Source: Desulfosudaceae bacterium (GTDB taxonomy: Bacteria > Desulfobacterota > Desulfobacteria > Desulfobacterales > Desulfosudaceae). From it: a DNA stretch of 64,000 nucleotides. Shown here one piece after another: positions 9,995-15,871 of this stretch (positions within the stretch are counted from its first letter, which is position 1; each line of letters starts with the position of its first letter). Where the stretch lies: assembly GCA_963674745.2 (NCBI GenBank), contig CAXXDV010000001.1, positions 2,176,001 through 2,240,000 on the forward strand, read 5' to 3'. Under the pieces are notes generated by a model. The model had not been told where the DNA came from. It ran no database searches and saw only the letters and a list, made by a program, of their open reading frames with translations. A program made the translations under genes and the position numbers.

Positions 9995-12797
9995 TCTGTT
10001 TTTATGGTGTCTGATTCTTTCGCTGAGTGCGATTACCGATGGCCGGGCGGATAGCCGATATGCCCTCACGCCGGCAAACGGCCCGGCGATAAGCAAACCA
10101 GGATCCATTGAAAACCCGGCGATCGTTTACGTTGAATCGTCACCGGTTTTTATATCTGTTGTCGAACCGGCCGTGAGCGTGGCGGAGACCAGTCAATATA
10201 AACCGGTAAACAGGTGGCAGGCCCAGGCCCGGGTCGACGTTCCTTCTCCAGGCCTGGTTGAGTCCACCCTGATACCGGAACTGCATCAGGTGCGGGCGGT
10301 AAAAGGCGGCCGGGAGGGTAATCAGCTGGACCTCTGCCTTCTGGGTCCGGATGGCAAGCCCCGGGGATTTGAGCTGTTCTGGCGGGAGAAGGGGCGGCAG
10401 GAAACGGTTGCTCTTAAACAGGCAAAGGTCGAACTGCTGGACGGCCGGCGCTTGCTCTGGGAGGGCGTTGTGCCGGATCAGTACATGGTAAATAAAATCA
10501 TTATCGATATTGCCGACAGTAATTATGTGGGCAAAGTGGATGTTGAGGCGCTGAATGATTCCGGATGGATCTTTCTGGTGAAGAATGCCGCTCTCTATAA
10601 AAACAACCGGTTAAACCAGGCTGAAATATCAATATTAGATGGTCCGTATCAACGGTTCAGATTATACTTCAGCGGATATGATGAAAAGTTTCGTGACAGG
10701 CCGCTTTTTGTCAGTCGCGTTCAAGCGGTCGGCACACGTTCCGGAAGAGATTACGAAAACACATCCTTTCAGTCTGAATTTGAAGAGATTACGGAAGACC
10801 GGGCAACCGTCGTCCGTGTACGGCTTCCGGGTTCAGGTATATGGATAAATGATATAAAGATAGCGACCGACGCCCTTTTCCAGGGGGAATGGCAGCTGGG
10901 ACGTGAAACCAATGTGCTCGGCAAACGGGAATTTTCAGTTATTTCAAGCGGTCGTGTCAGCCATGTCGGCGAAAACCAACAGACGCTTATGCTTGATGTC
11001 AACCAGCGGTGGCCGGATCAGATTCTGACGATCAGGATGGCTGCCAGAGATTATTTCGGCCGGATTCGGTCCGTGGACATTCGGGCCAGAATACCACGGA
11101 TGACCTTTTTTGCCGATTCAGCCGGACGCTATACCGTTCGCTCCGGCTGTGGAAACGCAAAGCCCGTTCTCGATATGGCCGGAGACCGCGGCCGCAGGAT
11201 CGATCACCAGCTTGTGCTTACGGGCATCACCCGAAATCTCAAGCGCATACACGACAACCTGGCGGAGAAATATCGCATCACCGGAGGGCCTTTTCATCAG
11301 GACGGTTATGCCTGGAAAGCGGATGTCCGGGTCGATGAGCCGGGGTTCTACCAGGTGGTTCTAAATAAACGCGTTTGTCTTGAAGAAAAATTATCCGCCC
11401 TGAGACTGGTCAGGGACAACAATCAGGTCCCCTATTTTCTGGGGTTCGAGGAAGAACGATATGTGCGGCTTGAAGCGTCGGAAGAATATGACGCCAATCA
11501 GAATCGCACTGTTTATACGGTCAGGCTTCCCTTTGCCTCATCACACTGGGCTGCCATTAAGCTGAGTGCCGAAGGCCTTTTTGAACGGACGCTTGTTTTT
11601 CAGAAGCATGTCCCGGGAATGATCGGATGGCAGCCATGGAAGACCCGGCGCTGGGTCGGCCGGCAGGGGCGAAAAACCGATTTCATTCTGGGGCTGAATG
11701 ATTTCCCCCGGGATCAGGATGAGGTCCGGCTGATTGTTGACCACGGGGACGATCAGCCTCTGGACATCCAATCCGTTTCGGCGGGCTACAGCGCCCGGGA
11801 TCTTTTTTTTCTGGCTTCGACACCGGGTACCTATACCTTGTTCGGTGGGAATCCGGACGCGTCGGCGGTCTCTTACAAAGATTTTGAAATGATAAAAGAT
11901 GAACTGCTGGCCGCAGTTCCGAGACAGGTCAAAATGGGGGATGTCGAATCCGTACAGACCGCCGGAGAAGAAAACCCGTCGGGAAAAGATATGGGCGGAC
12001 CTTTTGATGATAGCGGGTATACCTGGGCCTCATCTCTTGGAGAGATCACAAAGTCCGGTTTTTATCAGTTGCGGCTTAACCAGCAGGCGTCCCTTGAAAA
12101 TAACCGTCATGGTTTAAGGCTGGTCAGAGATAATCAGCAGGTGCCCTATTTTCTGGGAGGGCTCCAGCAGAGAGGGGTGGCACTGTCCGTTGAGAAAGAA
12201 TATGAACGCGACAGGAACGAAACGACCTGGACGGTCAAACTGCCTCGAGCTTCCGCTCATTGGCACAAGCTTCGCATGACCGCGGAAGGCGTGTTCAGCC
12301 GGGATCTTGTGCTTGAGGTCCGGAAGCCCGGGAATACCGGCTGGCAGGTGTGGAAAAGAGTTGAATGGACAAACCGGCATGCGGGTGAAACGGTTCTGGA
12401 AACCCCGTTAGCGGCATTTCCAAAGGGACAGACGGAAATCCGCCTGGTCATGCGGCATGGTGACAACAAGCCGATTGACGTTAAGAAGGTAGAGGCGGTT
12501 TACACCACCCGGGACATGTTTTTTATTGCCGGTCAGGGTGACGGTTACCGGCTGGTCGGTGGCAATCCTGCGGCTTCGGCACCTTCCTATGACCTGGCGC
12601 TGATCAGGGACCATGTTCTGAAAAAAGAACCGATAAAGATCTCCATGGATGAAATGGAGACGTTAAAGCCGGCAGCATGGAAAACAAAAATCAGCCACAC
12701 CTTCAGTGAGCAGGGATGGGGCCTTTATGCGGTTCTGGGGCTGGTGACCTTGATCCTGCTGATTGTCATCGTGCGGCTGTTTCCCAAGGAGGACTAA
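9978..12797 (+). CDS. Exported, C-terminally anchored protein with internally repeated DUF3999-like modules
   Basis: Signal peptide; duplicated LRLVRDNxQVPYFLG / HGDxxPxD / GGNP.A.A..YD modules; C-terminal TM; overlaps the DUF2339 stop codon. Confidence 0.7.
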   Translation: MPKKRDLFLWCLILSLSAITDGRADSRYALTPANGPAISKPGSIENPAIVYVESSPVFISVVEPAVSVAETSQYKPVNRWQAQARVDVPSPGLVESTLIPELHQVRAVKGGREGNQLDLCLLGPDGKPRGFELFWREKGRQETVALKQAKVELLDGRRLLWEGVVPDQYMVNKIIIDIADSNYVGKVDVEALNDSGWIFLVKNAALYKNNRLNQAEISILDGPYQRFRLYFSGYDEKFRDRPLFVSRVQAVGTRSGRDYENTSFQSEFEEITEDRATVVRVRLPGSGIWINDIKIATDALFQGEWQLGRETNVLGKREFSVISSGRVSHVGENQQTLMLDVNQRWPDQILTIRMAARDYFGRIRSVDIRARIPRMTFFADSAGRYTVRSGCGNAKPVLDMAGDRGRRIDHQLVLTGITRNLKRIHDNLAEKYRITGGPFHQDGYAWKADVRVDEPGFYQVVLNKRVCLEEKLSALRLVRDNNQVPYFLGFEEERYVRLEASEEYDANQNRTVYTVRLPFASSHWAAIKLSAEGLFERTLVFQKHVPGMIGWQPWKTRRWVGRQGRKTDFILGLNDFPRDQDEVRLIVDHGDDQPLDIQSVSAGYSARDLFFLASTPGTYTLFGGNPDASAVSYKDFEMIKDELLAAVPRQVKMGDVESVQTAGEENPSGKDMGGPFDDSGYTWASSLGEITKSGFYQLRLNQQASLENNRHGLRLVRDNQQVPYFLGGLQQRGVALSVEKEYERDRNETTWTVKLPRASAHWHKLRMTAEGVFSRDLVLEVRKPGNTGWQVWKRVEWTNRHAGETVLETPLAAFPKGQTEIRLVMRHGDNKPIDVKKVEAVYTTRDMFFIAGQGDGYRLVGGNPAASAPSYDLALIRDHVLKKEPIKISMDEMETLKPAAWKTKISHTFSEQGWGLYAVLGLVTLILLIVIVRLFPKED

Positions 12798-12974
12798 AGA
12801 CGCGCAGACGGACGGTCTCCAGTCCAATGCCACTCACGCTGGATCCGCCGTGATTTCCGGATTTCCGGGGACATCCATGATAAGTAAAGTCAAGGGAAAA
12901 AAAGAGTTTTCCCATCCGCCAAAGAATACCCCCTGGTGGTTATGTTCCCGGTTCTCCGCGTAAGCTCTTTTTAA

Positions 12975-13170
12975 TCTGTGTCTATTCGATCGACGGTCTG
13001 CCGCGACCAGACATCCATTTGCTGTATCAGCCGCTTTATCCTTAATAAATAAAGCGGCGTCACAGAAGATTGAGTTTGGGTTAAAACCCGCCGGCCTCGA
13101 AACAGTATAAAAGATTGTATCTCGATCGGCTGTTCGATCACACAGTCCCCAAAACGCGAGGCCCGGCGGG
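12975..13170 (-). ncRNA. Candidate IS110 bridge/seek RNA with two stem-loop domains
   Basis: Stem 13087-13099/13157-13170 with inner hairpin 13124-13128/13135-13139; stem 12975-12980/13061-13066 with hairpin 13030-13039/13049-13058; loop 9-mer 13010-13018 is identical to element end 12870-12878. Confidence 0.7.
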
Positions 13171-13206
13171 AAAGCAACAGACGGATAAACCGTTATTTTA
13201 TAAAAT

Positions 13207-14244
13207 CTATGCCGCTTCCTGTTCTTCTCCTTTCGGCAGTTCAAACGTCTTTTGTCCTTTATCAACCGCAAGCATGTAGGCGACAAGCTTTCGTGCTACC
13301 GCCAGCGTGGCCCGGTTTTTATTGCCTTTCTCGATCTCTCGGGCATGCACCTCGGCCAGTTGCGGGTTCCAGTAAGGTGCCAGTTTGGCCGCTTCGACCA
13401 ATATCGTTTGTAAATGTTTGTTTCGCTTCTTCGATATTGGGCCTCTCATATTTTTGCCGGCCGACTCTCTTTGAGCGCTGCATAACCCGCAATAACTGAC
13501 AGCTTTCCGGGCCGATGAAAAACGGCCAGGATCTCCGATCTCCAGTGCCCAGGTCAGGGCCGTAACCTCTCCGACACCCCTGATGGACATCAGTCGATCC
13601 ACCCGTTCTTTTATCTGCTCATTATTGCGGAGCACCTTTAACAGTTTTTTTTGGATATCGGTAAACATCTCATATCCGGATCGGGACATGCGCAGCAGGT
13701 TTATTACCGACTCGGGCACATCTTCCATGTTCTCCAGCAACTCACGAAAATATTTTTTCCGGTGCAGTCTGCTTTTGGTGTATTCCGCGCCGCATTCCAT
13801 CAGGAGGCCGGATATTTTGTTTTGCATACGAACCGCCTCTCTGACGATATGATTGCGATAACGGAGAATGCGGCGCAACTCCCGCATATCCTCAGGCATC
13901 ATGTAACACTCCGGCAATAAATCGCACCGCAACAGATCGGCAATCATTCGCGCGTCTACTTTGTCGTTTTTCTTTTTGGATGCAGAAATAGCCTTGAGCA
14001 TCTGGGGATGGGCGACCTTCAACTCCTCAGCATACGGTTTTAAAAAATCATAAATCCATCCTGAAAACATCGTTGCTTCCATGGCGCCTGTCCACGGCCC
14101 TGGCAGACCATCTGCCCAGTGGGTTAAAGCGGAACGCGTAGCGGATATCACCCCTTGTCCGATAACGGTTCCGTCTTGTTGTTTAATGCAATAAGCGATA
14201 GTTTTCTTGTGAATGTCCAGTCCGATATAGTATGATTTTTTCAT
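13207..14244 (-). CDS. IS110-family transposase/recombinase (DEDD RuvC-like plus Tnp20 domain)
   Basis: IGLDIHK, MEAT, KNDKVDA (DEDD); SIRGVGEVTA; YCGL...ESAG catalytic Ser; ALAVARKL-type C-terminus; GGAGG RBS before ATG 14244. Confidence 0.95.
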   Translation of the reverse strand: MKKSYYIGLDIHKKTIAYCIKQQDGTVIGQGVISATRSALTHWADGLPGPWTGAMEATMFSGWIYDFLKPYAEELKVAHPQMLKAISASKKKNDKVDARMIADLLRCDLLPECYMMPEDMRELRRILRYRNHIVREAVRMQNKISGLLMECGAEYTKSRLHRKKYFRELLENMEDVPESVINLLRMSRSGYEMFTDIQKKLLKVLRNNEQIKERVDRLMSIRGVGEVTALTWALEIGDPGRFSSARKAVSYCGLCSAQRESAGKNMRGPISKKRNKHLQTILVEAAKLAPYWNPQLAEVHAREIEKGNKNRATLAVARKLVAYMLAVDKGQKTFELPKGEEQEAA

Positions 14245-14245
14245 G

Positions 14246-14340
14246 GGAGACCTCCTTGTTTGTGGATTCAGATTCTGAGCAAGCCCAGTGCCTGTCTCAG
14301 CCGGTATTTTAAATACCACATCTGCCACCGGGAGGTCTCC
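14246..14340 (-). promoter_or_regulatory. 10-bp inverted repeat able to sequester the transposase RBS
   Basis: GGAGACCTCC (14246-14255) / GGAGGTCTCC (14331-14340); the first arm contains the GGAGG RBS on the minus strand. Confidence 0.55.
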
Positions 14341-14581
14341 TCTCTCAATTAACTTACTTATGCATTCAAACAGTATAATTATTTATTCATGTAATATATA
14401 GTTACAAAGAAATAGAGATGTCCCCAGAATTGCAGAATTGCAATATAGTCTTAGTTCGGGGTTGGGACTGGGTCTGCCAGTACTAAAATTTAGCACAATA
14501 ATGGATAATTTTGATGATTGGGTACTTGATCATTTTTTTAATGATGGTGATATTTGTGAATGATGGATATGGTGTGATTAG

Positions 14582-14779
14582 ATGAACCTATCAAGCATTT
14601 TATATTATATTGGTGCGTTTTTTCTAATTGTGACAGGACTTTGCGGAGCTTTAATTACGATTAGAATAAATTGGATTAAAAACAAGGATCAAAATATTGA
14701 CCTTTTAATAGGCAAAATTGCTTTTTTTTCAATATGTTTAGCTATTATTTTCATATTTATTGGTGTTGGTATTAGTTAG
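14582..14779 (+). CDS. Small AT-rich two-TM hypothetical protein
   Basis: 65-aa ORF with two hydrophobic segments in a visibly AT-rich patch. Confidence 0.55.
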   Translation: MNLSSILYYIGAFFLIVTGLCGALITIRINWIKNKDQNIDLLIGKIAFFSICLAIIFIFIGVGIS

Positions 14780-14928
14780 TGCCCATCCAAAAATATTAAA
14801 TTTGGGGACAAATAGGGTCTATAATTTTATGCGTTTTTTCTATAGTATAGTGCGTTGACTCGTCATGGGCAACCTTCGGTTGGCCCATGGCACCCAATTG
14901 ATTTTTGCAGCACCTCAAACCCCGCCCC

Positions 14929-14991
14929 TTAATCACTTAATCACTTAATCACTTAATCACATAACCACTTAATCACATAACCACTTAACAC
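14929..14991. repeat. Tandem octamer repeat (TTAATCAC/ATAACCAC), about 8 units
   Basis: Directly visible. Confidence 0.9.
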
Positions 14992-15007
14992 ATTAAAACC
15001 TAAAACC

Positions 15008-15871
15008 TTAACACCCCCTCGACCCCTCGACCCCTTGACTCCTCGAACCCTTTCTTTTCGCCACGAATTTGACGATCAAATCCGAAAAGAAATGGGTCAG
15101 GTGTCCGTTGCTGATGCGGTGGTTAAAATACAGGTATCGGGCCATCAGCCCCGGCACCACCATGAACCTTTTTTTCTTGATGGCTTTGACGATGGTCCGG
15201 GCCACGTATTCGGGCTTGAGCAGCCCGGCCATGCTTTTCACGGCCCGGGCCTCAGGCGGCAGGGTGGGGGCTTCTTCGGCCACAAAGGGCGTGTCCACTT
15301 CCGGCGGGCAGACCACGGTCACGTCGATGTTCATCAGTTTCAGCTCGCTGCGCAGGCACTCGGAGAGCCCCACCAGGGCGTACTTGCTGGTGCTGTAAAG
15401 GCTGTAGCCGAACATGCCGATCAGGCCGGCCTCTGAAGAGAGGTTGACGATATGGCCCCGGCCGGATTTGCGCATATAAGGCAGAAGCGCGGCAATGGTA
15501 TTGCGCGTGCCGTAAACGTTGATCTTCATGACCCTGTCAAAATCTTCGTAGGAAATGTTTTCAAAATAGTCGGCCGTTCCGATGCCGGCGCTGTTGATCA
15601 GAATGTCCGGTACACCGAATTGATCAACGGCGGTTTTAATTTTGTGCTGCACATCGTCATTGTCGGCCACGTCCATGGATATGGTGTCGATTCGCTGGTT
15701 TTTGTCAACACTTCCGGTTTCAAGCTTTTGCCTGGCTTTGTCCAGTCCACCCTGTTTCCGGGCAAACAGTATCAGGCTGCACCCTTCAGCAACAAGCAGG
15801 CGGGCGGTTTCAAGGCCGATGCCGCTGGAGCCGCCGGTAATATAGGCGAGTTTTCCGGAAAAAAAAGCCAT
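15008..15871 (-). CDS. Short-chain dehydrogenase/reductase, 3-ketodihydrosphingosine-reductase-like subgroup
   Basis: TGGSSGIG, NSAG, YSTSK; CPPEVDTP...E and GYSLY resemble KDSR-like SDRs. Confidence 0.85.
   Translation of the reverse strand: MAFFSGKLAYITGGSSGIGLETARLLVAEGCSLILFARKQGGLDKARQKLETGSVDKNQRIDTISMDVADNDDVQHKIKTAVDQFGVPDILINSAGIGTADYFENISYEDFDRVMKINVYGTRNTIAALLPYMRKSGRGHIVNLSSEAGLIGMFGYSLYSTSKYALVGLSECLRSELKLMNIDVTVVCPPEVDTPFVAEEAPTLPPEARAVKSMAGLLKPEYVARTIVKAIKKKRFMVVPGLMARYLYFNHRISNGHLTHFFSDLIVKFVAKRKGSRSQGVEGSRGC
15015..15051. repeat. Degenerate octamer repeat (CCCCTCGA/CCCCTTGA) overlapping the SDR 3' end
   Basis: Directly visible; encodes the low-complexity tail KGSRSQGVEGSRG. 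Confidence 0.8.

Follow-up and report, generated by a model that had tools for sequence, protein, structure and literature searches.

The stretch of Desulfosudaceae bacterium DNA analysed here (64,000 nucleotides (nt) of contig CAXXDV010000001.1, positions 2,176,001 to 2,240,000; hereafter the window) very probably carries on its minus strand an intact insertion sequence of the IS110 family, IS1111 group, which has a bridge RNA or seekRNA encoded 3' of its recombinase gene and sits at TATACT-GT-CCCCGGAA, within an arm of a palindromic repeat between genes. The boundaries of the element are supported by a second, identical genomic copy, by the ends of homologous elements at 79 loci (transposases 62-73% identical), by 21 uninterrupted TATACTGTCCCCGGAA sites in relatives and by the guides of the RNA; the boundaries, the target, the stems of the RNA and the covariation of guides with flanks and with ends were all demonstrated in the analysis. 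The element, its target and its subterminal repeats are located in the window as follows.

12871 to 14369, minus strand: insertion sequence, 1499 base pairs (bp) counting one copy of the GT core (at the right end); defined by identical copies, conserved homologue ends and uninterrupted sites.
14370 to 14377, minus strand: left target half TATACT plus core GT (GT at 14371-14370); the same beside both copies, equal to the 3' guide of the target loop and contiguous with CCCCGGAA in empty sites.
12863 to 12870, minus strand: right target half CCCCGGAA (right copy of the GT core at 12872-12871); the same beside both copies and complementary to the 5' guide, with right flanks of homologues varying with their guides.
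12880 to 12887, minus strand: right subterminal inverted repeat TTACTTAT, with its partner ATAAGTAA at 14354-14361; 8 nt, 100% complementary.

The genome of origin (5.55 Mb, three contigs) contained exactly two places matching the element, each at 100% identity; no other close copy was detected in it by tblastn, the remaining IS110-family genes being 24-30% identical. The two copies, A and B, were identical over 1515 bp, from 14377 (TATACTGTTTGAATG...) to 12863 (...CATGGATGTCCCCGGAA), and their flanks differed beyond these points, copy B lying within a repeat-rich part of contig 3 (C3). A repeat unitig in the probable source sequencing run covered 12867-14377 at a depth of 21, with flanks at 11.3 and 7.8. 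The outermost 8 nt at either side of the shared 1515 bp are target rather than element: the layout reads left target-TGT-(TTGAATGC ... CATGGA)-TGT-right target, and the element is therefore 14369-12871, 1499 bp, beginning TTGAATGCATAAG and finishing ...ACTTATCATGGAT-GT. Of the 79 homologous loci, 72 had the left-end motif TTGAATGCATAAGTAAG and 62 had the right-end motif TTGAC..ACTTATCATGGATGT; the left end itself was TTGAATG in 53 of 67. In the flanks displayed, the left flank finished GT before the left end (TGT nearly throughout; TGG in L007), and right flanks mostly started CCC. TGT stood at each junction of the element, with no longer duplication, as is usual in the IS110 family, whose elements lack terminal inverted repeats and have only a short core repeated on either side. 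The subterminal inverted repeat stretches to about 12 bp with one indel when judged by eye, the literature giving 7-17 bp for the IS1111 group, and non-coding sequence amounts to 125 nt upstream and 336 nt downstream of the transposase gene.

Uninterrupted versions of the target were found in related genomes. At no more than one mismatch, the 16-mer target occurred at 60 sites in 12 of 31 genomes (30 relatives and the genome of origin), including 9 of the 12 from the same family; 21 of these sites were perfect TATACTGTCCCCGGAA, spread over seven relatives, and a reversed control pattern gave 4 matches. The genome of origin itself held no perfect uninterrupted TATACTGT+CCCCGGAA site and five with one mismatch, all within C3:1.50-1.56 Mb. 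At three homologous loci (L038, L071 and L077), an unbroken copy of the element's own target lay a few tens of bases off.

The gene within the element encodes a protein of the expected kind.

13207 to 14244, minus strand: transposase/recombinase gene, 345 amino acids, with DEDD motifs GLD, MEAT and NDKVDA and serine motif GLCSAQRESAG.

The protein matched PF01548 (1.6e-20) and PF02371 (2.9e-20), which correspond to a DEDD/RuvC-like N-terminal domain and a Transposase_20 C-terminal domain. With the NCBIfam equivalog model NF033542 ('IS110 family RNA-guided transposase') it scored 210.8 bits, the cut-off being 140. Alignment to the solved IS621 and ISCro4 proteins was weak (E about 7e-8), yet GLD, MEAT and NDKVDA fell on the DEDD residues. 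Across 80 scanned entries (the 79 loci and the window), the E and D..D motifs were retained in nearly all and the serine motif in 79. Relative to the IS1111 form GL-P----S(T)G, GLCSAQRESAG has S in place of P and A in place of G, a form kept across the homologues; TA has occasionally been reported in the literature. The proposal of an earlier note on this DNA, that an intact, RNA-guided recombinase of the IS110/IS1111 type is followed by a 3' non-coding RNA, is supported. Separately, residues of about 155-265 gave a weak match to the NCBIfam model of the TIGR-Tas RNA-guided endonuclease, 24.4 bits, far under its cut-off of 100.

A region of ~300 nt after the stop codon aligns well among the homologues, and the following parts were distinguished in it.

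13087 to 13170, minus strand: target-binding stem-loop, 84 nt; helix 1 pairs 13170-13157 with 13099-13087, helix 2 is an inner hairpin, and an internal loop lies between them.
13009 to 13078, minus strand: donor-binding domain, comprising a candidate 5' guide ACUCAAUC (13075-13068) with the overlapping alternative CAAAC (13078-13074), a variable hairpin (13065-13022), the 3' guide AUGGAUGU (13018-13011) and CU (13010-13009).
12994 to 13009, minus strand: third hairpin, UGGUC...GACC, conserved; compensatory changes in 5 of the 7 pairs of this helix (helix 5).

The structure was derived from an alignment of the trimmed RNAs (38 sequences), a MAFFT alignment of the whole downstream regions having been discarded as too gappy. 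Both RNAalifold and a direct count supported four helices and a basal extension; of the 30 pairs in these stems, 17 showed compensatory change, and 96.4% of cells were paired. None of 500 shuffles attained this degree of covariation, and structures slid by 1-3 columns gave at most 8 compensatory pairs. No Rfam family was matched by positions 12500-14800 at E values up to 1, and it seems that Rfam 15 holds no model matching this RNA.

The internal loop of the first hairpin carries both target guides. The 5' guide, UUUUGGGGAC (13154-13145), is the complement of GTCCCCGGAA in the right flank if two rU-dG wobbles are allowed, and the 3' guide, UAUACUGU (13109-13102), has the same sequence as TATACTGT, the left half of the target with the core; the UU that follows it (13101-13100) equals the first bases of the left end. 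The earlier note had correctly placed the target stem-loop first and had picked TTTTGGGGAC (13154-13145), with its two wobbles, as the guide to the right flank; the second target guide, which it had left unassigned, is supplied by UAUACUGU.

In order to compare guides with flanks across the homologues, the target loop was extracted from 72 of 81 entries (the 79 loci and the two copies in the genome of origin), which gave 62 distinct guide pairs, each represented once. On the left, the 6 nt of the 3' guide that precede TGT agreed with the flank of the same locus at 4.29 of 6 positions on average, as against 2.18 with shuffled flanks (n=52, reached in 0/5000 shuffles). On the right, the 5' guide could pair with 6.27 of the 9 nt that follow TGT at the same locus, as against 5.35 (n=45, 0/5000 shuffles), a contrast that is smaller because many of the targets are alike. 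The covariation between loop and flank that the earlier note had called for was thus present on either side, own flanks exceeding all 5000 shuffles. Clear cases were provided by L010 (AAAUAGGGAC against GTCCCTATTT, and GGCGCUGU against GGCGCTGT), L075 (UAUGAGGC against GCCTCATAA), L078 (CCUUGGAC against GTCCAAGG) and L059 (UUUUCGUGU against TTTTCGTGT). Five loci from acidobacterial assemblies (L004, L007, L018, L023 and L067) carry a related transposase with no such RNA within 700 nt downstream; four of the five have the left end, and all five share conserved downstream sequence that seems to be coding.

The second domain of the RNA matches the ends of the element. Its 3' guide AUGGAUGU is equal to the right end plus core, and the right-end variant CATAGATG was accompanied by RNA AAUAGAUGUC in 6/6 loci and in 0/56 others, so that the earlier identification of ATGGATGTC (13018-13010) as a donor guide stands. 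The CU after AUGGAUGU pairs with the first two bases of the right target, one of the two pairs being a wobble. A guide to the left end can be assigned only provisionally, the strongest candidate being ACUCAAUC (core plus left end); the left-end variant TTAAATG was accompanied by RNA ACUUAAU in 4/4 loci and in 0/63 others, a covariation confined to one position. CAAAC was also tried as the left-end guide and was ranked second: its variants CUAAC and CCUAAAC do not track left-end variants, and it is retained as an alternative. The additional donor hairpin reported in the earlier note is present (13065-13022) and has covarying closing pairs, one of which, 121/181, showed 19 double changes; PMC11208160 already describes an extra donor hairpin, and donor-binding bases located in a multi-loop in many IS1111 RNAs.

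It might be supposed instead that the first hairpin alone acts, as a short seekRNA choosing the target, that the protein recognises the ends mainly through the subterminal inverted repeats, and that the second domain serves structure or regulation. The RNAs that co-purified with IS1111 transposases were mainly 82-96 nt long and bore target matches (PMC11187229), the first hairpin here is 84 nt, and the donor 5' guide is weak, all of which would suit such a division of labour. The second domain is, however, highly conserved, AUGGAUGU tracks the right-end variant in 6/6 loci and ACUUAAU one left-end variant in 4/4, and bridge RNAs with donor loops have been predicted for 93% of IS1111 elements (PMC11208160). 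We therefore regard this alternative as improbable, and favour an RNA with both a target-binding loop and a donor-binding domain.

The core lies within TGT and is most likely GT rather than TC, the core given in the earlier note. GT (14371-14370 and 12872-12871) is where the pairings of the two target guides overlap; by the rule described for IS621 (PMC11208160), both guides include the core, and the overlap therefore identifies it as GT. The predicted junction of an excised circle would be ...CATGGAT-GT-TTGAATGC..., that is, TTATCATGGAT-GT-TTGAATGCATAAG, in place of the ATGGATG-TC-TATT proposed earlier; circle formation and the exact positions of cleavage are what we infer from this arrangement. 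At three loci (L052, L054 and L059), CATGGA-AGT-CCC stands at the right junction, with TGT retained at the left junction and AUGGAUGU retained in the RNA, a configuration that fits neither a GT nor a TG core.

Several observations weigh against this account of the element. Shared ancestry of the homologues inflates both permutation statistics, and that the RNA is expressed and bound by the recombinase is a prediction from its sequence; of 23 sequencing runs listed, none is recorded as RNA. The donor 5' guide is uncertain: ACUCAAUC pairs with G-TTTGAAT at only 6 of 8 positions, and its assignment is provisional because it is unchanged in seven loci with TAGAATG and in one locus with TTTAATG, with CAAAC still standing as an alternative. 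Nor can the core be fixed to the base, since the right junction is TGA or TGC in four loci and AGT in three, and only the G is invariant. In L028, L030 and L031 (TGA) and in L075 (TGC), the junction agrees with the 5' guide (GGGGUC and GAGGC, respectively), whereas L014, L025, L047, L053 and L063 have a U-type guide (GGGGUC; GGGUC in L014), which predicts A, yet a TGT right junction, though L053 reads TGTACCCC; a mismatch inside the crossover region that may be resolved either way would explain these T/A cases. The serine motif has SA (ESAG) where SG or TG is usual, and an orthologous empty site for this locus was not found in the 30 relatives searched. Contigs assembled from four sequencing runs likewise contained neither an empty site nor a circle junction. 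A joint jumping 12914-13002, present in single contigs of two of these data sets (X1 and X3), was set aside because its shorter side was anchored by only 22-28 letters at a minimum likeness of 88; it was read as belonging to related elements of other organisms and not to a variant copy.

The target is part of a palindrome, the remainder of which lies outside the element.

14378 to 14425, minus strand: rest of the target palindrome, with a degenerate left arm GGGGACATCTCTATTTC (14425-14409), a loop and the inner right arm GAATAAATAAT (14388-14378).

The 16-mer target is the outer portion of an arm of ~25 nt, about AAATAG-N-TATACTGTCCCCGGAATT (a consensus drawn from pattern matches in the genome of origin), and the element splits the right arm between GAATAAATAAT-TATACTGT and CCCCGGAA. 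Because the element sits in one arm of a palindromic target, an inverted repeat of 21 nt, 81% complementary, runs across it (12855-12875 with 14417-14437), in which the right flank and the final bases of the element pair with the opposite palindrome arm, and the left arm resembles an end.

This resemblance bears on the model of the earlier note, in which the element (12863-14425) ran from TC/TATT (about 14414) to ATGGATG/TC (12870), with a TC core, donor guides ATGGATGTC and AATAGAC, a junction ATGGATGTCTATT and a target GGGGACATC-TC-CCCGGAA; to that model we now give next to no credence. The strings it quoted do exist at the minus-strand places named (ATGGATG-TC-CCCGGAA at 12878-12863, GGGGACATCTCTATT at 14425-14411 and AATAGAC at 12986-12980), and GGGGACATC and GATGTCCCC do form an inverted repeat across the element, for which the palindromic target accounts. 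However, the copies are identical only from 14377 to 12863, so its left end, GGGGACATC-TC-TATT (14425-14411), lies outside the element; GGGGACATC... (14425-14409) is absent beside copy B, which lacks everything left of 14377, and the true left boundary is 14369. What was taken for the left end, GGGGACATCTCTATTTC, belongs to the target palindrome as its second arm and lies about 45 nt beyond the element. Left ends of homologues begin TTGAATG right after TGT, no site within two mismatches of the target it had deduced occurs in the genome, and AATAGAC, its right donor guide, has no match other than the misplaced end and shows no conservation among the aligned homologue RNAs. The search for other copies and empty sites that the note had suggested did yield a second copy and uninterrupted target sites, and these contradicted its core and its boundaries. 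Just as hard to credit is that the whole shared 1515 bp is the element, with the first loop as donor loop, a junction GTCCCCGGAA/TATACTGTTT and a target read elsewhere: both 10-mers do lie at the edges of the shared stretch and match the first loop, but TATACTGT and CCCCGGAA are contiguous in the 21 perfect sites of relatives and in the five one-mismatch sites of the genome of origin, the outer positions vary with the loop in homologues while TTGAATG... and ...CATGGATGT are constant, and no junction-like 20-mer was found in the genome within two mismatches.

Together these data favour the 1499-bp element with a GT core, from which a mechanism can be proposed. A DEDD/serine recombinase would be guided by the RNA encoded 3' of its gene; the first loop would read both target strands through UUUUGGGGAC and UAUACUGU, with pairings overlapping at GT, and the second, multi-branched domain would read the joined ends of the excised circle, AUGGAUGU corresponding to the right end plus core and, less certainly, ACUCAAUC to the core plus left end. 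Each 3' guide is followed by two bases that match the partner DNA, which resembles the handshake guides of IS621. Excision would give a circle with the junction ...CATGGAT-GT-TTGAATGC, placing TTGACT 17 nt upstream of TG-n-TTGAAT as a possible promoter. Three further features may bear on expression.

12888 to 12893, minus strand: -35-like TTGACT, which in the circle would lie 17 nt upstream of TTGAAT (14369-14364), as TG-n-TTGAAT.
12894 to 12913, minus strand: terminator-like hairpin GGGAAAAC...UUUUCCC, conserved, just before the -35-like hexamer.
14246 to 14340, minus strand: 5' leader hairpin, in which GGAGACCUCC (14340-14331) pairs with GGAGGUCUCC (14255-14246); 10 nt, 100% complementary, overlapping the ribosome-binding site.

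A junction promoter in the circle is plausible: in 38 aligned right ends, TTGA did not vary and the following C hardly did, and the alignment had no gaps from the hexamer onwards. The earlier note had named the same -35-like hexamer (12893-12888) in the right end, which stands, together with TATTTC as the -10, which does not. A promoter consensus scan of the integrated copy gave nothing above chance (2 sites as against 2.0 expected). The leader hairpin may restrict translation from read-through transcripts.

Arms of ~25 nt like that interrupted by the element cluster within about 125 kb of contig 3 (C3:1,501,500-1,623,700, loci L082-L088), where they stand singly or as inverted pairs and are all intergenic. 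In a loose scan for the arm (no more than 7 mismatches in 25), 27 of 56 matches fell in C3:1.50-1.68 Mb, where the best ones concentrate, and several arms paired in inverted orientation, 13-160 nt apart, with their GGGG ends outermost. The 16-mer core of the arm was multicopy in 9 of the 12 same-family genomes, with a maximum of 21 sites (G006). The region C3:1.50-1.63 Mb was considered as an integron-like cassette array and rejected as such: Pfam searches on 65 of its 109 open reading frames returned ordinary mixed genes with no array logic, among them oxidoreductases, kinases, aminotransferases, Druantia DruA and a BglII-type nuclease, and a same-strand gene ended no more than 400 nt upstream of only 13 of 21 repeat arms. 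The repeats are classed as intergenic palindromic repeats. Two defence-type genes lie in this repeat-rich region, a Druantia DruA homologue (C3:1,512,206-1,513,402; PF14236, 5.7e-88) and a BglII-type restriction endonuclease (C3:1,560,158-1,560,664; PF09195, 2.4e-40). A separate repeat of ~40-100 nt occupies about 14912-15058 of the window, just 3' of a minus-strand dehydrogenase gene (15008-15871); it has many matches in the genome of origin (C1:359141, C3:1066845 and C3:1108375, for example) and also matches in relatives, one of which (G028) has tandem units of 36-38 nt.

The system is a cleanly bounded natural example of the IS1111-type bridge RNA, in which all four guide segments have been mapped and three are well supported. 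About 60 natural guide variants among the homologues reveal the positions that are read; rU-dG wobbles, a base next to the core G that is unpaired or bulged, and the 2-nt extensions matching partner DNA are among the features they show. They offer useful comparative material to those who engineer recombinases of the IS1111 type, a group that has received less study than IS621, and leave the known picture of the family's mechanism unchanged. The palindromic target also illustrates how calling of ends can be misled when one copy is used. We entertain the possibility, itself rather unlikely, that a large and little-described IS1111 lineage of sediment bacteria tracks variants of one ~25-nt arm across several families by retuning both target guides, that the repeat may itself form the end of an as yet unrecognised mobile or recombination element, and that donor and target may carry unlike bases just after the core G, a difference resolved in either direction; if true, this would be an RNA-guided parasite co-evolving with another repeat family.

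Among known systems, the element is most readily set beside the IS1111 seekRNA elements ISEc11, ISKpn4, ISPa11 and ISPst6 (Siddiquee et al. 2024, PMC11187229). It shares with them a longer non-coding region 3' of the gene, subterminal inverted repeats, a very specific target, a transposase (345 amino acids) inside the range of 330-350, and, within one hairpin, a top-strand match that precedes the bottom-strand match in the 5' to 3' direction and overlaps it in the target. It differs in that its target is a palindromic intergenic repeat of this bacterial family, and in having GLCSAQRESAG as against GL-P----S/TG.

With IS621 (Durrant et al. 2024, PMC11208160; Hiraizumi et al. 2024, PMC11208158), it has in common two loops that would each read both strands around a 2-nt core, pairings that overlap at the core, two extra bases after one guide that match partner DNA in a handshake-like manner, and a promoter, putative here, split between the right and left ends. 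Unlike in IS621, the RNA is 3' and not 5' of the gene, the core is GT and not CT, the donor loop is multi-branched, the order of the guides is inverted relative to the gene, and the protein match is weak (E 7e-8). Read on the opposite strand, the layout would by analogy map onto that of IS621, the 5' guide corresponding to the left guide (bottom strand) and the 3' guide to the right guide plus core plus the 2-nt handshake guide, as these are set out in PMC11208158.

A further parallel is offered by ISPpu9 and ISPpu10 of Pseudomonas putida (PMC12288879), which are IS110-family elements inserted at a fixed position in repetitive extragenic palindromes, often paired as inverted repeats, and in which a structured 5' leader may limit translation. 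An ssr9-like satellite was not seen here, only two genomic places matching the element. Host and repeat family are unrelated, and the circles of ISPpu9 form no hybrid promoter, whereas one is plausible for the element described here.

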